A DNA stretch of 64,000 nucleotides from an uncultured Mycoplasmatota bacterium (GTDB taxonomy: Bacteria > Bacillota_I > Bacilli_A > RF39 > UBA660): the NCBI GenBank assembly GCA_947305065.1, contig CAMZCT010000003.1, positions 23,623 to 87,622 on the forward strand, given 5' to 3'. Below, one piece after another: positions 9,066 through 51,343 of the stretch. Each line of letters begins with the position of its first letter. The first letter of the stretch is position 1. The notes below the pieces were generated by a model that was given only the letters and a program-made list of their open reading frames with translations, ran no database searches and was not told where the DNA came from. Made by a program: the position numbers and the translations under genes.

Positions 9066-10211
9066 ATGAAGAAATATTTAAAATATTTATTAGCTCTTTT
9101 ATTATTTATACCTTTTGTAGTTAGTGCTCAAGATGTAGGTATTAAAAATATATCATTGGTTGATAGTAAAGGATTTGTGGAAGAAGTAAGTCCTGCTAAA
9201 GCGGAAGGATTAAATGTTGATTTAGATTTAAAATTTAGAGAAGTAGGAGATGAAGCAACATATTTATTAATAATACATAATGGAGATAGCGAAGATTATG
9301 TATTAGATACTAAATTAGGTGTTAGTAGTAAATATGTAGAATATTCATTAGATTCAGCTAGTGATGATAATATTATTAAAGCTGGTGGAGATACTAAAGT
9401 ATATATAACAGCTAAGTATAATAAAGCTGTGCCAGATTATTTAATGACAGAGAATAAATATAGTGAAATAATGAATATTAAAATAAATTTTGTTGGTGAT
9501 AATAATATACCGGAAGAAACAAGTAAGAATGCAGTAAATCCTAATACTGGTAATCCAATAGTAATTATTGGCATAGGTTTATTTATAACAGTAATATGTG
9601 CAGTATTATTAAAAAACTACAATGTTAGAAAATATACTAATATGATATTAATATTAGGATTGGTATTAATACCAACAACAATAATGGCTTTGAAAACAGT
9701 TGTTATAGATGTAAATTCGAAAGTAGAAATAGAAAAAGTAGAACCAATTACTTTCTATGTAGAAAGAGTGTACTTCTTTGGGGAAAGCCCTAGAGAAAAT
9801 TATACTCTTACAGGATTACCAGGAATGACTTGGGGACAATGGTTAACTTCTAGTTTTAATGATAAGAATATTAAAATGGATGATTTAGCTAATATTAATA
9901 AATTTAGTGATATGGCTTGTAAACAATCTCATTTTATCTATGATTCCGAAAGATTTGATGCTGCTATGAATGGAATATACGGTGATAATACTAATGTTGA
10001 TGCAAATAGTGGTAATGTTAATAATTATGAGACCGATGCTCCTACTTCAGCAACTAGTTATGGCGATATTACGGTTGAAGAATATAAACAAATCGGAGGA
10101 ATTTTACTAAATGATGAAATAGTAGCAAATACTAGATATAAATATATAATTGGTAATCCTTGTGAAATAATTAGTTATTATGATAATCTGCCGGGAGGTC
10201 ACACAATGTAG
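9066..10211 (+). CDS. Exported two-domain protein with an internal sortase-B-like sorting signal / TM hairpin
   Basis: Signal peptide MKKYLKYLLALLLFIPFVVSAQD (start moved to ATG 9066, RBS AGGTGA). Mid-protein NPNTG + hydrophobic helix + KNYNVRK, then a second helix and a ~170-aa C-terminal domain. No recognisable catalytic motifs. Confidence 0.6.
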   Translation: MKKYLKYLLALLLFIPFVVSAQDVGIKNISLVDSKGFVEEVSPAKAEGLNVDLDLKFREVGDEATYLLIIHNGDSEDYVLDTKLGVSSKYVEYSLDSASDDNIIKAGGDTKVYITAKYNKAVPDYLMTENKYSEIMNIKINFVGDNNIPEETSKNAVNPNTGNPIVIIGIGLFITVICAVLLKNYNVRKYTNMILILGLVLIPTTIMALKTVVIDVNSKVEIEKVEPITFYVERVYFFGESPRENYTLTGLPGMTWGQWLTSSFNDKNIKMDDLANINKFSDMACKQSHFIYDSERFDAAMNGIYGDNTNVDANSGNVNNYETDAPTSATSYGDITVEEYKQIGGILLNDEIVANTRYKYIIGNPCEIISYYDNLPGGHTM

Positions 10212-10220
10212 TTTTGTATT

Positions 10221-10246
10221 AAGTTTATCGAAAGATAAACTTTTTT
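10221..10246 (+). terminator. Rho-independent terminator
   Basis: Stem AAGTTTATC/GATAAACTT with loop GAAA, then TTTTTT. Confidence 0.7.
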
Positions 10247-10545
10247 AATTGTATAAAAATTAATGAAATGTTAGATTTAGCTAATGAAGGAATAATTTCA
10301 CAAATGTTTGATTCTGAGGAAAAGGTGACATATGTAAAAAGTAATTGACTTTACTTTTTTTATATTGTATATTTAATTTGACTTTTTTATTTGAGAACTT
10401 ATATTTTGATATGTACTACATTTTTTTATATGTGGTTTTTTTGCTTTGCATAGGAAGGAGAGTAAAAGGGAAAATTCGGCTACTTAGAGGTACATAAGAA
10501 ATATATGTATCTTTTTTAAAATAGTTAATATTTATAGGAGGATTT

Positions 10546-11529
10546 ATGAGTTTTATCAGTGTAAAACATTTAAACAAAGAGTTTAAGGTATTGCAGCGTG
10601 AAAGTGGACTTAGAAACGCCTTTAAATCGTTGATTAAGAGAAAATATAGAACTATTAAAGCCGTTGATGATATCTCTTTGGAAATTGAAAAAGGCGAGAT
10701 TGTTGGATATATTGGACCGAATGGTGCTGGTAAATCAACAACGATAAAAATGCTTTGTGGAATATTAAAAGCGGATAGTGGAACTATTAGAGTTGCTGGT
10801 TTTGATCCTTTTAGGGATAGAAAACAATATGTCAAAAATATTGGTGTTGTCTTTGGACAAAAATCACAATTATGGTGGGATATTCCAGTTATAGATTCTT
10901 TTGAATTATTAAAAAGTATCTATAAAATAAGTGATAAAGATTATAATGAAACAAAGAATGAATTATTAGAATTACTCGATTTAGAAGATATTCTTACAAT
11001 TCCAGTTAGACAACTGAGCTTAGGGCAGAGAATGCGAGCGGAAATCGCAGCGTCTTTACTTCATAATCCGAAAATATTATTTCTAGATGAACCAACTATT
11101 GGACTTGATGCTGTTTCTAAATTAGAAGTTAGAAAGTTTATAAAAGAAATAAGTAAGAAGAAAAAAGTTACTGTTATTCTTACTTCTCATGATATGAGCG
11201 ATATTGAAGCTTTGACTAATCGTCTAATAGTAATAGGGCATGGAAAAAAGCTTTATGATGGAACTCTTACAGGTATTAAGGATAAATTTTCTAATAATAA
11301 AAGGTTAGAAATAATATATAAAAATTTAAAAAAACAACCAGAGATTAAAAATACAACGATAGTAGAGAATAAAAATAATAAAGTAGTATTAGATGTTGAT
11401 ATTACTAATATATCGGTATCTAGTGTTATAAAGAAATATACTGAAGTATGTGATATAGAAGATGTAAATATAATAAATGAGGATATAGATAATATAATAG
11501 TTAAGTTGTATAAAGATTACGATTTATGA
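10546..11529 (+). CDS. ABC transporter ATP-binding protein
   Basis: Walker A GPNGAGKST, signature LSLGQRMR, Walker B ILFLDEPT, H-loop TSHD. Stop overlaps the next start (ATGA). Confidence 0.9.
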   Translation: MSFISVKHLNKEFKVLQRESGLRNAFKSLIKRKYRTIKAVDDISLEIEKGEIVGYIGPNGAGKSTTIKMLCGILKADSGTIRVAGFDPFRDRKQYVKNIGVVFGQKSQLWWDIPVIDSFELLKSIYKISDKDYNETKNELLELLDLEDILTIPVRQLSLGQRMRAEIAASLLHNPKILFLDEPTIGLDAVSKLEVRKFIKEISKKKKVTVILTSHDMSDIEALTNRLIVIGHGKKLYDGTLTGIKDKFSNNKRLEIIYKNLKKQPEIKNTTIVENKNNKVVLDVDITNISVSSVIKKYTEVCDIEDVNIINEDIDNIIVKLYKDYDL

Positions 11530-22476: not shown

Positions 22477-23101
22477 GTTTGTAGTTACTGATGTATTGTT
22501 AAAGTTGGTTAAAGCTAAGGACTTATCTTTAAATGAATTTCTTGTACTTATGTATTTAGATAATAACTATAGTGATAATTTTGAAATAGAAATTATGAGT
22601 GAAGCATTGAATTTAGATACAGAATTATGTTTAGAAGGTTTTAATTCATTGTTGATGAAGGGATTAGTAAGTCTAGATTCTAAGAAAGATGAAAATGACA
22701 AGTATAAGGAAGTAGTTAATATAGATAATGCTTATAAAGTAGTTGAAATAGAAGATGAAATAGAACTTGAAGGGGAAGAGATATTTAAGATATTTGAAGA
22801 AGAGTTAGGAAGAACTTTATCTCAGACTGAGTTGGCCTTGATAAATGGATGGTTGTTATCTGGTACTAAAGAAGAATTGATTATTGGGGCTTTGAAAGAA
22901 GCTATCTTTAATGGAGTTACTAGTTTTAGATATATAGATAAGATTATATATGAATGGGAAAAGAAAGGGTTTACTTCAATGGATGAAGTAAATGACTATT
23001 TAAAGAATAGAAGAAATGATAAGGTACAGGATAAAAAGGAGATTGAAAAAAAGGAACAAGAAGTATTGGATTATGATTGGTTGAACGATGATGATAAGTA
23101 A
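22442..23101 (+). CDS. dnaD: DnaD-domain replication initiation / membrane attachment protein
   Basis: C-terminal DnaD/DnaB-2 domain: FEEELGRTLSQTELALINGWL...FRYIDKIIYEWEKKGFTS. Conserved dnaD-nth synteny with Bacillus. Start moved to ATG 22442. Confidence 0.75.
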   Translation: MVVKGVSKKEYKFVVTDVLLKLVKAKDLSLNEFLVLMYLDNNYSDNFEIEIMSEALNLDTELCLEGFNSLLMKGLVSLDSKKDENDKYKEVVNIDNAYKVVEIEDEIELEGEEIFKIFEEELGRTLSQTELALINGWLLSGTKEELIIGALKEAIFNGVTSFRYIDKIIYEWEKKGFTSMDEVNDYLKNRRNDKVQDKKEIEKKEQEVLDYDWLNDDDK

Positions 23102-23720
23102 TATTAATGATAAGTTAGATATAATGTTCCCGGATGCTAGATGTGAATTAGAATATAATAAAGATTATGAATTATTAATAGCTACAGTTTTATCAGCACA
23201 ATGTACTGATAAAAGGGTAAATAGTTGTACTAAAGAGTTATTTAGTAAATATAAAGATTTAACTAGTCTTTCTAAGGCGAATAAGAGGGATATAGAAGAT
23301 ATTATTAGATCTTGTGGTAATCAGGTCAAAAAGAGTGGATATATCCTAGAAATAGCTAAAAAGTTATTAAATGAGTGTGATGGTAAAGTACCTAATGATA
23401 GAGAATATTTAGAAAAGTTACCAGGAGTAGGAAGAAAGACCACTAATGTGGTAATATCTAATATTTATGATGTACCTGCTATAGCTGTTGATACGCATGT
23501 AGCTAGAGTTAGTAAAAGGTTAAGATTAGCTAATAAAAATGATGATGTATTAGATATTGAAAAGAAACTAATGAAAAAGATACCTAAGGATAAATGGAGT
23601 AAAAGTCATCATCAATTAGTTTTATTTGGAAGATATATATGTAAAGCTCAAAAACCAGAATGTGAGAGATGTTTATTCTATGAAGAATGTAATAGCAAAG
23701 ATAAAATAAATCGATTATAA
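23088..23720 (+). CDS. nth: Endonuclease III (DNA-(apurinic/apyrimidinic site) lyase)
   Basis: HhH-GPD motif LPGVGRKTTNVV...DTHV. C-terminal 4Fe-4S cluster loop CKAQKPECERCLFYEEC. Confidence 0.9.
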   Translation: MMISNINDKLDIMFPDARCELEYNKDYELLIATVLSAQCTDKRVNSCTKELFSKYKDLTSLSKANKRDIEDIIRSCGNQVKKSGYILEIAKKLLNECDGKVPNDREYLEKLPGVGRKTTNVVISNIYDVPAIAVDTHVARVSKRLRLANKNDDVLDIEKKLMKKIPKDKWSKSHHQLVLFGRYICKAQKPECERCLFYEECNSKDKINRL

Positions 23721-23755
23721 TAATGGTTAAAATTATTGAAAACGAGGAGAAATCT

Positions 23756-25315
23756 ATGGACATATTACAGACAACGCTTAGTTTGCTTAGAAAAGGTAAT
23801 CAGTTATTACTGGCTAAAAAGAAAATTGGCTTTGGCCAGGGTAAATATAATGGTATTGGGGGAGAAGTTGAAAAAGGTGAGACCCCAGAACAGGCGATGA
23901 TTAGGGAAACAGAGGAAGAAATATTTGTTACACCTACTAAGTATGATAGAGTTGGTTATTTAGAATTTGATGAGTTTTATAAAGGAGATAAGAAGAGAAT
24001 AATATTTCATATATACTTAGTGGAAGAGTGGCAAGGAGAACCAATGGAAAGTGAAGAGATGGATCCTAAATGGTTTGACTTGGATAATATTCCTTATAAT
24101 GAAATGTTTCCAGATGATAGTTATTGGCTTCCTTTAATATTAGAGGGTAAAAAAGTTAGAGCGTTTTTTGATTTTGATGAGAATTGGACTATCTTATCGA
24201 AAAGGATAGATGATTTTTATAAGAATATAAGTATAGTTATAGATGGACAAGCTGGTTCTTGTGGTAAAGGTAAAATATGTGGGTATTTAGCCAAAAAAGA
24301 TGGTTATAGAGTGTCTACTAATAATTGGTCTAGTAATGCTGGACATACCTATGTAGAAAATGATGGACGAAAAATAGTTGTTAGTCATTTACCGATGGGG
24401 ATAGTTAATCCGAGTACAAAAATATGTATTAATGCAGGGGCTATAATTACGCCTGAAACATTATGTAAAGAGATTGATGAGTATCAAGATTTAATTGGGG
24501 ATAGAAAGGTTTTTATTCATCCTAGAGCAATGATAATATCAGAAAAGCATAGGGAGATAGAAAGGCAAACTATTGTAAGTGGTTCTACTTTTAAGGGATG
24601 TGGAGCAGCTTTAGCTGAGAAGATTATGAGAACAAAAGATATTGCTCTTGCTAAAGATTATTTTAAGAATGTTGACGATAAGTATAGTAATATTATTGAA
24701 ATTACTGATACAGCGAGAATATTAAATGAAGAACAAGGTGAAATATTAATAGAAGGGGCGCAAGGACAAGATTTAGATATAAATTATGGACTTGATTATC
24801 CTAATGTTACTAGTAGAATGTGTAGTGCAGCACAACTAGTTGCTGATGCTGGATTAAGTGTATTTATTGTCAAGGATATTTATATGATAATTAGACCATA
24901 TCCGATTAGGATTAGTAATAAAACTAATATTGGCAAAGATATATATAGTGGTGATTATGCTGGTAGTAAAGAGATTACTTGGGAGAGGGTTGCTAAAAGA
25001 TGTGGGTGTCCTGAAGATTTAATTGAATTTACGACAGTTACAAAGAAGAAAAGAAGAGTTTTTGAAATGAACTGGGATAGACTTAAATATAATGTAATGA
25101 TCAATAGACCAACCCAGATAGTATTAAATTTTGCTCAATATATTGATTACAAAGCTTATAAATGTAAAAGTTATGATAAATTACCCAGAAAAGTTAAAAA
25201 CTTTATTGCGAAAATAGAAAAAGAGACGAAAGTTCCGGTTACATTGATTGGTACTGGAGAAAGAGATGAAGATATTATAGATTTGCGAGATAGGATTTTT
25301 AACCTAGGAGAGTAA
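23756..25315 (+). CDS. Fusion protein: MTH1/NUDT1-like Nudix hydrolase (N-terminal) + divergent short adenylosuccinate-synthetase-like (PurA/PurZ-like) module (C-terminal)
   Basis: N-terminal: Nudix box GGEVEKGETPEQAMIRETEEEI, plus KYNGIGG and MFPDDSYWLPLILEGKK, which parallel human MTH1. C-terminal PurA-fold motifs occur in order: GQAGSCGKGK, SNAGHT, GSTFKGCG, EGAQGQDLDINYGLDYPNVTS, TTVTKKKRR and GTGERDEDI. There is no stop or frameshift between the modules. ATG 23756 (RBS GAGGAG) is preferred to 23723. Confidence 0.8.
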   Translation: MDILQTTLSLLRKGNQLLLAKKKIGFGQGKYNGIGGEVEKGETPEQAMIRETEEEIFVTPTKYDRVGYLEFDEFYKGDKKRIIFHIYLVEEWQGEPMESEEMDPKWFDLDNIPYNEMFPDDSYWLPLILEGKKVRAFFDFDENWTILSKRIDDFYKNISIVIDGQAGSCGKGKICGYLAKKDGYRVSTNNWSSNAGHTYVENDGRKIVVSHLPMGIVNPSTKICINAGAIITPETLCKEIDEYQDLIGDRKVFIHPRAMIISEKHREIERQTIVSGSTFKGCGAALAEKIMRTKDIALAKDYFKNVDDKYSNIIEITDTARILNEEQGEILIEGAQGQDLDINYGLDYPNVTSRMCSAAQLVADAGLSVFIVKDIYMIIRPYPIRISNKTNIGKDIYSGDYAGSKEITWERVAKRCGCPEDLIEFTTVTKKKRRVFEMNWDRLKYNVMINRPTQIVLNFAQYIDYKAYKCKSYDKLPRKVKNFIAKIEKETKVPVTLIGTGERDEDIIDLRDRIFNLGE

Positions 25316-25346
25316 AAAAAAGAATTGATTAGGTATCAATTCTTTT
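25314..25346. terminator. Bidirectional terminator between the convergent Nudix-PurA-like gene and ponA
   Basis: 10-bp stem AAGAATTGAT/ATCAATTCTT, flanked by an A-run on the 5' side and a T-run on the 3' side. Confidence 0.75.
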
Positions 25347-29066: not shown

Positions 29067-29420
29067 ATGTATGGAGATAAAATATCTTTAACTATTGAAG
29101 ATATCTTAAATAAAGATTTTAAAATTGATGCTAGAGGATTTAGACCTCAAGAAGTTGATAGGTTCTTAGATACTATTATTGCGGATTATAATGAGTATAA
29201 TAATATGATAAAAGAATATAGAAAAGAAATTAGTTTATTAAATGATGAAAATACAAGACTTAAGAATGAACTAAGAAGGTTAAAGGATAATATCTCTGCG
29301 GCAGAAAAAGATGGTGCTCATGGTAATACTGTCAACAATGTAGATTTATTGAGACGATTAAGTCAATTAGAAAAGGTGGTTTTTGGAGACAATAATAATA
29401 ATAATGGTAATAAGGAATAA
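29067..29420 (+). CDS. gpsB: Cell-cycle protein GpsB (DivIVA-domain)
   Basis: LTIEDILNKDFKIDARGFRPQEVDRFLDTIIADY is the DivIVA/GpsB N-terminal domain, followed by a coiled coil. Small size. Divergent from recU-ponA and next to rnpB, as in Bacillus. Start at ATG 29067 (RBS GAAGGGTG). Confidence 0.8.
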   Translation: MYGDKISLTIEDILNKDFKIDARGFRPQEVDRFLDTIIADYNEYNNMIKEYRKEISLLNDENTRLKNELRRLKDNISAAEKDGAHGNTVNNVDLLRRLSQLEKVVFGDNNNNNGNKE

Positions 29421-29760
29421 AACTTAGGCAAATGCGATATACTTCGGGTATATTGAGGAAAGTCCAAGCTCACACAATCTGCGATGGTTGTAGTGTTCGT
29501 GCTAAGGGAAAAGATAACCTTAGGCAGTAATTTACTGACGGCTTCGAAATAGTCCCTCTGGGATTAAAGTAGATATAAAAGTGCCAAAGAGACGAGTCTA
29601 GAAAGTAATTTCTAGAGTGGAACGTGGTAAACCCCGCGAGTGAGAAACCCAAATTTGGTAGGGGAGTCCTTACTAGGAATTGAACGATGTAAGGAACCTA
29701 GAAATAGGTAGATAAATATTTGCCACTCCGTAAGGAGTACAGAACGTGGCTTATTAAGTT
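29421..29760 (+). ncRNA. rnpB: RNase P RNA (bacterial type B)
   Basis: Universally conserved GAGGAAAGTCC (29454-29464) and ACAGAACGTGGCTTA near the 3' end. P1 pairing is AACTTA (29421-29426) with TAAGTT (29755-29760). GGCAAAT pairs with ATTTGCC. The ends are approximate. Confidence 0.9.
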
Positions 29761-43217: not shown

Positions 43218-43265
43218 AATTATAAATAAATGATATATTTAAAGTGTATTAGAGGAGGAATGGAA

Positions 43266-44396
43266 ATGGATACTAAAAAGATAAAGAAAAATATGGGATA
43301 TAAGAATAATTATTTATCATTTTATGCAACTAAGGATGACGATGCTATTAGATTAAAGGCTATAGAAGAAGATATAAGACCTCCGTTTTTTAGAGATATA
43401 GATAGAATTGTTTATTCATTATCTTATACGAGATATATGGATAAAACACAAGTGTTTACTTTTAACGATAATGATAATATTAGTAAACGTATGACACATG
43501 TTCAAATGGTTTCTAAAGTAGCAAGAACTATTGGTAGAGCACTAGGTTTAAATGAAGATCTAATTGAAGCAGCTGCTTTAGGTCATGATATTGGCCATGT
43601 CCCATTTGGTCACGTTGGAGAAAGAATATTAAATGAAATAAGTCTTAGAGTAAATGAAGGATTTTTTAATCATAATGTTCAAAGTGTAAGGCAGTTAATG
43701 GTCTTAGAGAATAAGGGAAAAGGATGTAATTTAACTATTCAGGTATTAGATGCGATACTTTGTCATAATGGGGAATTGGAGTTAAAAGAATATCGTCCTC
43801 GTAAAAAGGATATAAGGACTTTTTTAGAAGAATATGAAAATACCTATAAAGATCCGGGGGCAGTAAAGAAATTAGTTCCGATGACATTAGAAGGATGTGT
43901 TGTAAGAGTTAGTGATATTATCGCTTATATTGGCAGAGATATAGAGGATGCAATCAGATTAGGATTAATTAAAGAAGAAGATATTCCTTTAGAAATTAGA
44001 GATGTATTGGGGTGCACTAATAGTCAGATAATAGATACTATTATTAAGGATATTTTAACTAACAGTTTAGATAGAGAGTATTTAAAAATGAGTGATGGTG
44101 TATATAGAGCTATTAAAGCATTAAAGAAATTTAATTATGAAAATATTTATGATAAAGCTAATAGTATAGAAATGTTAGAATTCTATAATAGTGTATTTAA
44201 TACAGTCTTTGATGTTTCCTTGAAGGGTGTAAAAGAAGGTAATAAAGATAGTAATATATATATGGTTTTTTTGAATGAGATGGATGAAGAATACATTAAA
44301 AATACTAGTGATGAAAGAAAAGTTATCGATTATATAGCAGGTATGACAGATGACTATATTGTTAAGGAATATAAGATATGTCTTAATAAAAAGTAA
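43266..44396 (+). CDS. dGTPase-like HD-domain phosphohydrolase
   Basis: HD motif RMTHVQMVSKVAR...LGHDIGHVPFGH. DDY near the C-terminus (GMTDDY), typical of the dGTP triphosphohydrolase-like family. Confidence 0.75.
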   Translation: MDTKKIKKNMGYKNNYLSFYATKDDDAIRLKAIEEDIRPPFFRDIDRIVYSLSYTRYMDKTQVFTFNDNDNISKRMTHVQMVSKVARTIGRALGLNEDLIEAAALGHDIGHVPFGHVGERILNEISLRVNEGFFNHNVQSVRQLMVLENKGKGCNLTIQVLDAILCHNGELELKEYRPRKKDIRTFLEEYENTYKDPGAVKKLVPMTLEGCVVRVSDIIAYIGRDIEDAIRLGLIKEEDIPLEIRDVLGCTNSQIIDTIIKDILTNSLDREYLKMSDGVYRAIKALKKFNYENIYDKANSIEMLEFYNSVFNTVFDVSLKGVKEGNKDSNIYMVFLNEMDEEYIKNTSDERKVIDYIAGMTDDYIVKEYKICLNKK

Positions 44397-50854: not shown

Positions 50855-51343
50855 ATGATTAAATTAGATCAGTATAGAGACACGTGGTTAAAAGAAAAGA
50901 TGGATGATGTAATAGGTTTTTATCCAAGAGAGTTTTATCCACTTGATAATTTTTCTTCATTTAAAGTAGAAGTTGATGGTTATTTGTATGCTTCTTTAGA
51001 AGAAGCTTTTCAAAGTTCTTTATTTTTACCTGATTATCCAGATATTTCTCAAAAAATAAAAAACAGTCATTCTGCACATGAAGCGCAGAAAATAATGTTT
51101 GAAAATATAGATAAAGTAAAATATTCTTTTGATGAACAATTGGTTATTATGGAAAAATTATTAAGAATTAAATCGGAACAAAATCCCTATGTAAAGAAAA
51201 AGTTATTAGAAACCAAAGATTATACAATAGTTGAAGATTCGCCAAAAGATTCTTATTGGGGATGGGGAATTAATAGAGATGGTGAAAATCAACTAGGTAA
51301 ATTGTGGATGAAGTTAAGGGAAGAGATTAAGAAACAAGAATAA
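50855..51343 (+). CDS. NADAR (YbiA-like, DUF1768) family protein
   Basis: F(Y)PLDNFS...YASLEEAFQS...YWGWG...GENQLGKLWMKLR, the pattern typical of NADAR domains. Confidence 0.7.
   Translation: MIKLDQYRDTWLKEKMDDVIGFYPREFYPLDNFSSFKVEVDGYLYASLEEAFQSSLFLPDYPDISQKIKNSHSAHEAQKIMFENIDKVKYSFDEQLVIMEKLLRIKSEQNPYVKKKLLETKDYTIVEDSPKDSYWGWGINRDGENQLGKLWMKLREEIKKQE

Follow-up and report, generated by a model that had tools for sequence, protein, structure and literature searches.

In a 64,000-nucleotide stretch of the genome of an uncultured Mycoplasmatota bacterium (assembly GCA_947305065.1, contig CAMZCT010000003.1; hereafter the window, in whose positions all coordinates are given unless a locus number such as L002 precedes them), one gene encodes an MTH1-like Nudix domain and a short PurZ-like domain of the adenylosuccinate synthetase (AdSS) fold in a single polypeptide. 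In Z-phages, 2-aminoadenine (Z) replaces adenine fully and defeats host restriction, and to our knowledge its biosynthesis has so far been known solely from phages. From the comparative evidence below we propose, at a probability of roughly 0.6, that the fusion is a chromosomal two-domain enzyme that would perform the first two steps of the phage Z deoxynucleotide pathway, and some bacteria may make 2-aminoadenine themselves. What is new here is the pairing of a PurZ-type synthetase with a pyrophosphatase in a cellular chromosome, the use of a Nudix partner, and the joining of both domains in one chain. The initial annotation, made by a model from the sequence alone, had called the architecture undescribed, and our full-text literature searches found no relevant published combination of PurZ, diaminopurine or adenylosuccinate synthetase with a Nudix protein. 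The latest phylogenomic survey of PurZ places only phage sequences and four archaeal ones in the PurZ group (PMC12884076).

23756-25315, + strand: fusion open reading frame (ORF), Nudix plus PurZ-like, 519 aa plus stop
23756-24220, + strand: MTH1/NUDT1-like Nudix domain, aa 1-155 (Pfam NUDIX, human MTH1 match, Foldseek)
24221-25312, + strand: PurZ-like short AdSS-fold domain, aa 156-519 (Pfam, NCBIfam, matches in the Protein Data Bank (PDB), Foldseek, tree)

Pfam recognizes both halves of the protein (NUDIX at aa 10-126, 2.4e-16; Adenylsucc_synt, PF00709, 3.4e-41). The claim that this is a single uninterrupted ORF held up, with no stop or frameshift in the window and the same architecture intact in 12 further species-level genomes, and every motif quoted in the initial annotation was found in the translation at its confirmed position.

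The synthetase domain and its phage relatives

The following segments carry the residues by which PurZ and PurA can be told apart.

24245-24274, + strand: P-loop GQAGSCGKGK, aa 164-173, with Ser168 in place of the PurA catalytic Asp13
24578-24604, + strand: SGSTFKGCG, aa 275-283, nucleotide-phosphate loop, with GST as in PurZ and PurZ0 versus GTT in PurA
24896-24985, + strand: PYPIRIS and a 20-residue insertion ending in SGDYAGSKEITWE, replacing PurA RVGxGPFPTE and matching the PurZ-specific insertion near the sugar 2'-position
25031-25063, + strand: TTVTKKKRRVF, aa 426-436, aspartate-binding loop, TTVTK.xRR in phage PurZ and (A/T)TTGRRRR in PurA
25124-25141, + strand: LNFAQY, aa 457-462, phosphate-donor base pocket, replacing the guanine-specific TKLD/TMLD of PurA
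25247-25288, + strand: IGTGERDEDIIDLR, aa 498-511, archaeal-type C-terminal segment, with Glu for the Pro of the G-x-G-P base loop

Judged residue by residue, these diagnostic positions decide for a PurZ-like domain: the PurA hallmarks (catalytic Asp13, GTP-specificity motif, GxGPFPTE loop and TTGRRRR loop) are all replaced. Conservation of Asp13 reaches 99% in PurA, and all phage PurZ and PurZ0 proteins (100%) have Ser there instead (PMC12884076). The initial annotation had noticed Ser at the catalytic Asp of GDEGKG, which is Ser168, and the P-loop pattern DGQAGS.GKG recurs in 115 of 120 members of the bacterial PurZ-like family. Searching 1.84 billion cluster representatives (50% identity) with HMMER, we retrieved 492 clusters at E <= 1e-30, and the best 150 of these have Ser at the Asp13 position in 135 cases, Gly in 2 and Asp in 1. 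The annotated replacement of TKLD by LNFAQYID was likewise borne out; LNFAQY is identical to the hexapeptide of S-2L PurZ (N305-F306-A-Q308) in which N305, F306 and Q308 hold the adenine of ATP or dATP (PMC8342488), and it occurs in 116 of the 120 family members. In PurZ, an insertion after R-V crowds the sugar 2' position (PMC8342488), and the IRIS motif with its 20-residue insertion is shared with the PurZ proteins of S-2L, SH-Ab 15497, PMBT28 and vB_BpsS-140. Two further landmarks of the fold lie at aa 193-198 (SNAGHT) and aa 333-354 (EGAQGQDLDINYGLDYPNVTSR). The fusion thus resembles S-2L and phiVC8 PurZ in its Ser-type P-loop, GST, TTVTK, insertion after R-V/I and NFxQ adenine pocket, at 32-35% identity, TM (template modeling) scores of 0.85-0.88 and with membership in a common Ser-type clade.

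Among solved structures, sequence matches were strongest to Pyrococcus horikoshii PurA (1.5e-46), phiVC8 PurZ (3e-46) and S-2L PurZ (1e-35), with long bacterial PurA structures at 1e-18 to 1e-24. Foldseek gave TM scores of 0.90 for P. horikoshii PurA (5K7X), 0.88 for phiVC8 PurZ, 0.85 for S-2L PurZ, 0.81 for PurZ0 and at most 0.76 for long PurA. The archaeal enzyme (5K7X/2D7U; PRK04293) shares with the domain a compact fold, a length of about 340-365 aa and the C-terminal segment, and it gives the top single PDB and NCBIfam scores; however, its IMP/GTP-specific features (GDEGKG, GTT, RVGAGPFPTE, GTVTGRRRR and TMLD) are all missing from the family, from which it is separated in the tree.

That tree, calculated by neighbor joining (NJ) from 188 sequences and 344 columns with 200 bootstraps, was rooted on E. 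coli PurA and included eight added archaeal Asp-type PurA sequences. All Ser-type sequences were split from archaeal and E. coli Asp-type PurA (bootstrap 0.99), the bacterial PurZ-like family was recovered as a group (1.00), and it joined the IMG/VR phage contigs L056 and L057 and protein P0121 (0.92). A 145-member clade united the family with the PurZ proteins of phiVC8, S-2L, SH-Ab 15497, PMBT28 and vB_BpsS-140 (0.63), and PurZ0, which has a guanine-type donor pocket (SMAD/TMLD), was placed farther out than this ATP-type clade. The phylogenetic check proposed with the initial annotation therefore puts the module in the Ser-type PurZ/PurZ0 clade, not inside bacterial PurA, and diagnostic residues, clade placement and nearest phage relatives agree that it is PurZ-like, not PurA-like.

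Every good match among deposited phages was the PurZ of a known or suspected Z-genome phage, with identities of 43% for vB_BpsS-140 and 35% for phiVC8; the L056 and L057 proteins reach 51-53%. These two 63-kb IMG/VR contigs carry phage replication modules with a PD-(D/E)XK exonuclease, a UvsW-like helicase, ThyX, a dNMP kinase and a primase-helicase. The L056, L057 and vB_BpsS-140 proteins are the nearest relatives of the family, share its C-terminal segment (LP.KVK.FI..IE.ET.VPV..IGTG) and long insertion, and likewise have no recognizable DatZ or MazZ nearby, but they are phage-borne and stand-alone, sit in replication modules (ThyX, dNMP kinase, helicases, primase) and have no Nudix gene. 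The simplest history is that bacteria gained a phage PurZ, followed by amelioration and fixation. On both contigs (L056 9980-11640; L057 9941-11620), PurZ is followed by a conserved ORF of 153-154 aa that matches neither Pfam nor PHROG; its product could be yet another enzyme that supplies dGMP or removes dATP. Several metagenomic Ser-type PurA homologues (P0237, P0238, P0262, P0267, P0269 and P0270; P0141, P0145, P0158 and P0211) have unusual architectures, some with N-terminal P-loop nucleotide-kinase-like domains (AAA_18/AAA_33/ADK) and others with inteins or LAGLIDADG endonucleases.

The Nudix domain and its coupling to the synthetase

23858-23929, + strand: Nudix box GGEVEKGETPEQAMIRETEEEIFV, aa 35-58, holding the counterparts of E52, E55 and E56, the Glu residues that bind metal in human MTH1 (hMTH1)
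24104-24127, + strand: MFPDDSYW, aa 117-124, corresponding to hMTH1 W117(F)-P-D119-D120-S-Y-W123, the reader of the purine Watson-Crick face

The resemblance of the N-terminal ~155 aa to MTH1/NUDT1, noted initially from the sequence, was upheld by search: human MTH1 aligns with residues 7-149 without large gaps (E = 7e-35), and E. coli MutT matches at 8e-14. An AlphaFold2 (AF2) model of the fusion has a pLDDT of 91.5 and a pTM of 0.88, the latter hinting at a defined arrangement of the two predicted domains, and Foldseek matches the N-domain to MTH1 structures at TM 0.91-0.93 and 40% identity over the entire domain. The catalytic and base-reading residues are kept (K23, F27, N33, E52, E55, E56, F72, E100, D119, D120, W123 and F139 in hMTH1 numbering), among them the Asn and the Asp-Asp pair to which the initial annotation had drawn attention; the motif KYNGIGG lies at aa 30-36. 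The fusion differs from the human enzyme in having Phe for W117, Tyr for W32 and Tyr for F74, and in being bacterial and joined to a synthetase. Across 36 fused and 118 free-standing homologues, the Nudix-box Glu residues, Asn33, Asp119, Asp120 and Trp123 are conserved, and W117 is Phe.

Free-standing MTH1-like Nudix proteins of 153-157 aa form more than 100 clusters, 60-70% identical, in related 'Bacilli bacterium' metagenome-assembled genomes (MAGs), where they have housekeeping or repair surroundings and in no case a PurZ-like neighbor. In one related Bacilli MAG (L083 6001-7601; also L084 and L085), such a gene is directly followed by Ham1 (ITPase) and uracil-DNA glycosylase (UDG), an arrangement that resembles a small, compact set of genes for nucleotide sanitation and repair. 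Among deposited phages, we found no MTH1-like Nudix.

The strongest functional clue is the coupling of Nudix genes to the PurZ-like gene. Across 48 scorable loci including the window, counted by motif and cross-checked with BLAST, the PurZ-like gene is fused to, adjoins or lies near a Nudix gene in 41: the two are fused in 13 loci (11 MTH1-like, 2 of a second type), immediate neighbors in 25 (one of them a split fusion) and at most five genes apart in 3, with no Nudix in the remaining 7. The second Nudix type (..PYKxCWNGIGGKIE.., about 143 aa) lies directly upstream in about 21 loci, and a third (..KFNLVGGKVE.., 136 aa) directly downstream in three; the pair persists while the flanking genes differ. 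The three coupled lineages are mutually unrelated and either fused or adjoining, indicating that a purine NTP pyrophosphatase has been joined to this synthetase on at least three or four separate occasions.

A proposed route to 2-aminoadenine nucleotides and competing explanations

In the route that we propose, the MTH1-like Nudix domain would split a guanine (deoxy)nucleoside triphosphate, with dGTP as the likeliest substrate, into monophosphate and pyrophosphate, a role equal to that of phage MazZ, DUF550 or DutZ; GTP or oxidized dGTP would be possible substrates too. The PurZ-like domain would phosphorylate O6 of dGMP with ATP, and displacement by aspartate at C6 would yield N6-succino-2-amino-2'-deoxyadenylate (dSMP), from which the host adenylosuccinate lyase (PurB) and nucleotide kinases would make dZMP and dZTP. 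We infer the substrates (dGTP/dGMP, ATP and Asp), any channeling between the domains and the downstream steps by analogy with the phage enzymes. The cellular PurZ-like route on MazZ-PurZ logic that the initial annotation had suggested was favored by the sequence tests, whereas its second suggestion, a sanitize-and-convert step acting on 8-oxo-dGMP, gained no specific support from them.

Z-phages pair PurZ with MazZ, DUF550, DutZ or DUF5664 (PMC8342488; PMC12884076). As in the Z-clusters of S-2L and phiVC8, the synthetase has a purine NTP pyrophosphatase encoded right beside it; unlike those phage-borne clusters, the fusion is chromosomal and lies amid housekeeping genes, its loci have neither DatZ nor a Z-specific polymerase, and its pyrophosphatase is covalently joined and of the Nudix fold, not the all-alpha MazG/HisE fold of MazZ, with no homology match to S-2L MazZ. 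The synthetase part also differs from S-2L and phiVC8 PurZ in keeping an archaeal-type C-terminal segment, in the donor-loop Glu for Pro and in its sub-cut-off NCBIfam score. The actinophage systems of PurZ0 with DutZ, DmtZ or DUF5664 and the DUF550-PurZ pair of SH-Ab 15497 likewise combine a Ser-type PurA homologue with a non-homologous dGMP-supplying dNTP pyrophosphatase, but the partners described for them in PMC12884076 and PMC8342488 are non-Nudix proteins that are separate from the synthetase chain. Auxiliary Z enzymes are sometimes fused to one another, as in DmtZ-DutZ (PMC12884076).

Since cellular polymerases accept A and Z alike, and the pair of mazZ and purZ is enough to make E. coli replace part of its A by Z (PMC8342488), some Z would be expected in the carrier's own DNA. 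The cell might benefit through protection of its very AT-rich DNA, through an effect against phages or restriction, or through drainage of dGTP. A more tentative extension, which we regard as doubtful, is that a phage PurZ was domesticated by a group of low-GC bacteria from gut and rumen (RF39-like Bacilli/'Tenericutes' MAGs), which coupled it to Nudix pyrophosphatases of their own and make dZTP constitutively, with 2-aminoadenine in the chromosome, or with Z nucleotides or dGTP drainage acting against phages and restriction enzymes. On that extended view, these bacteria would provide the first case of a Z-base pathway in cells. If the proposed route is correct, the Nudix superfamily would join the 'functional convergence' of dGMP-supplying pyrophosphatases, and hundreds of family proteins would be mis-annotated at present as adenylosuccinate synthase. 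A natural one-polypeptide dGTP-to-dSMP module would serve synthetic Z-DNA work, and cellular use of the Z base becomes a directly testable question.

Several observations weigh against this proposal. In the synthetase domain, the fold match to P. horikoshii PurA is as good as that to PurZ; the NCBIfam PurZ model NF038379 gives 215.9 bits, missing its cut-off of 300, and the archaeal-type AdSS model PRK04293 gives 235.5 bits, missing its cut-off of 368 yet exceeding the PurZ score. The bootstrap of 0.63 for nesting with ATP-type PurZ is moderate and comes from an NJ rather than a maximum-likelihood tree, and Glu at the Pro of the G-x-G-P donor-base loop, found in 118 of 120 family members, means that the phosphate donor could differ. 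Constitutive Z synthesis was toxic to E. coli (PMC8342488). Queries with S-2L and phiVC8 MazZ and DatZ (tblastn) found neither in the window, the 51 bacterial loci or L056-L059, although the same queries recovered homologues right beside PurZ in viral loci L060-L072; DpoZ was likewise absent, and E. coli PurB as query found a single purB, at L037, in the window and the 51 flanks. A few homologue clusters carry a GNAT fusion in place of the Nudix. The idea that the Nudix partners are dedicated to the PurZ-like gene was rejected: MTH1-like and type-2 proteins both occur free-standing, the latter without a PurZ-like neighbor in 11 of 13 scorable metagenome loci. As the partners are ordinary residents also found alone, the coupling is one of recruitment, not co-inheritance of a dedicated partner. 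Comparison of fused with free-standing MTH1-like domains revealed no discriminating alignment column and no specificity-changing substitution, and the fused domain may merely stay a sanitizer of 8-oxo-dGTP and 2-oxo-dATP.

Some of these observations would also suit a housekeeping short AdSS, archaeal-type or phage-derived, that turns IMP and aspartate into adenylosuccinate, perhaps with ATP as donor, and to which the Nudix was fused through neighborhood as an independent house-cleaning domain. Databases label the family 'adenylosuccinate synthase', archaeal-type AdSS is its top NCBIfam model with the TM score of 0.90 to P. horikoshii PurA, the surrounding genes are housekeeping genes, and the Nudix types also stand alone in repair-type settings, for example by Ham1 and UDG. 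No canonical purA was found with E. coli PurA (tblastn) in the window or the 51 flanks (~0.8 Mb, ~1.5% of each genome), an absence that is uninformative because fewer than one match would be expected even if every genome had purA. Against this explanation stand the Ser at a position that is 99% Asp in PurA, the presence of all PurZ signatures and the 0.99 split from Asp-type PurA. The PurA models also fall short of their cut-offs (155.9 bits against 395 for TIGR00184; 235 against 368 for the archaeal type), and as the domain lies below the thresholds of both the archaeal AdSS and the PurZ models, it constitutes a clade of its own. Moreover, the family is patchily spread (found in 51 of the 185,579 genomes scanned, each representing one GTDB species), its chromosomal site shifts between species, close relatives have the same MTH1-like Nudix without the PurZ-like gene, and three adjoining Nudix lineages would be unexpected for a plain PurA. 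We therefore disfavor the housekeeping explanation and give it a low probability.

It is unlikely, if somewhat less so, that the same C6 aspartate ligation acts on another substrate: 8-oxo-dGMP or another damaged nucleotide ('sanitize and convert'), ribo-GMP (yielding 2-aminoadenosine nucleotides), or dIMP or XMP. MTH1 prefers oxidized purine dNTPs, the N-domain has the same key residues as free-standing MTH1-like Nudix proteins in sanitation and repair settings, and the fusion follows nth, a base-excision repair gene. In the synthetase, the Pro-to-Glu change in the donor loop, a V241-to-Ile change and the longer insertion make a pocket not identical to that of characterized PurZ. However, 8-oxo-Z nucleotides have no known use and the remaining two coupled Nudix lineages are not MTH1-like. 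The residues of the S-2L PurZ dGMP pocket (S23, N49/A50, S131/T132, Q190 and R240) are conserved, and Lys at the PurA-R303 position together with the insertion near C2' favors a deoxy substrate, as in PurZ.

Distribution, integrity and genomic context

With the full-length protein as query, we identified more than 1,100 homologues in a 5.8-billion-protein set, falling into three groups: ~40 clusters of Nudix fusions, ~80 clusters of stand-alone proteins (355-380 aa, 70-80% identical in the synthetase part), and the few GNAT fusions mentioned above. The taxonomic survey proposed with the initial annotation led to low-GC gut and rumen Bacilli-like MAGs of at least 51 species: all 51 carriers in the species scan are uncultured low-G+C MAGs from gut or rumen, labeled Tenericutes, Bacilli or Clostridia and including Clostridium sp. 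CAG:440 and CAG:575.

Nearest outgroups on phage contigs, a frameshift-split gene at one locus (L046) and mobile-element or defense-island genes near some loci would be compatible with an assembly artifact or a phage or prophage fragment, either two genes joined by error or a misbinned Z-phage cassette. This explanation is excluded for practical purposes. The uninterrupted fusion is present in 13 species-level genomes, the window included, and in numerous independent assemblies, the CAG:440 cluster by itself comprising 206 member sequences from 97 contigs; both domains flanking the junction show dN/dS of 0.06-0.16, indicative of strong purifying selection; and the G+C content of the gene (0.32-0.33, with GC3 of 0.18-0.27) is host-like in a window of 28% G+C. 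Core genes lie on both sides, and phage genes, DatZ and MazZ are all missing nearby. The order is thrS, cca (CCA-adding enzyme), dnaD, nth and the fusion, followed by convergent ponA (PBP1A), then recU, gpsB and rnpB, and locus L002 (89% identity) keeps identical synteny from thrS to recU; among the other species, the chromosomal site of the PurZ-like gene varies, amid core genes.

23088-23720, + strand: nth (endonuclease III), Pfam HhH-GPD 3.7e-23
23744-23749, + strand: Shine-Dalgarno sequence GAGGAG, read from the sequence, 6 nt before ATG 23756
25322-25346, strand undirected: AT-rich inverted repeat GAATTGAT...ATCAATTC with TTTT after it, in the space separating the fusion from the convergent ponA
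29420-29758, + strand: RNase P RNA, bacterial class B, 275.6 bits

The stop-free frame spans 23723-25315 (+ strand), and an upstream in-frame ATG at 23723 would give an alternative of 530 aa. ATG 23756 is the likely start, favored by the upstream GAGGAG and by agreement with the N-termini of orthologues. The reported placement directly after dnaD and nth is confirmed by Pfam, which recognizes DnaD (as DnaB_2) and Nth (as HhH-GPD) on the upstream side, with PBP1A, RecU and GpsB on the downstream side. Because the nth stop lies only 2 nt ahead of the first in-frame ATG of the fusion, the two genes are probably co-transcribed, and a promoter scan of the gap between nth and the fusion gave nothing above chance. 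The inverted repeat at 25322-25346, identified from its sequence, is possibly a bidirectional terminator; our terminator scan, which gave nothing above chance, did not report this hairpin because it requires at least three G-C pairs.

In MAG RGIG4938, two diverged fusion copies on separate contigs (L007 9545-11077 and L009 9545-11077; dS about 0.3) are either paralogues or derive from mixed strains, and the break at L046 into ORFs at 9515-10417 and 10421-11071 marks either a pseudogene with a frameshift or a fault in the assembly. At L014 (9515-11787) and L015 (9464-11787; see also proteins P0039 and P0059), the PurZ-like domain has an N-terminal GNAT acetyltransferase fused to it, and this fusion gene directly precedes an Asp/Glu-racemase-family gene in a cluster that also encodes GNATs, an APH-like kinase and a radical-SAM enzyme, with a separate 160-aa Nudix five genes upstream of the fusion.

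PADLOC gave a weak generic Nudix match (PDC-S07) on the fusion. Many Nudix/PurZ-like pairs adjoin genes that match its candidate-defense families PDC-S05 (ORF6N/RhuM-like) or PDC-S02 (YhcG-like) (L011 11103-12122, L016 5781-6809, L046 15431-16486 and others), and a MobV-like relaxase lies near the pairs in several loci. The PDC-S05 and PDC-S02 neighbors are suggestive of a gene of variable islands and provide no evidence for a defense role.

Elsewhere in the window, the class B RNase P RNA is consistent with a Bacillota/Mycoplasmatota-type host. A dGTPase-family protein (HD plus HD_assoc; 43230-44396, + strand), also dGTP-acting, is encoded after dnaJ, 18 kb downstream of the fusion. An NADAR/YbiA-like protein is encoded at 50855-51343 (+ strand), and its homologue in L004 (559-1023) lies directly upstream of a Nudix-PurZ-like fusion.

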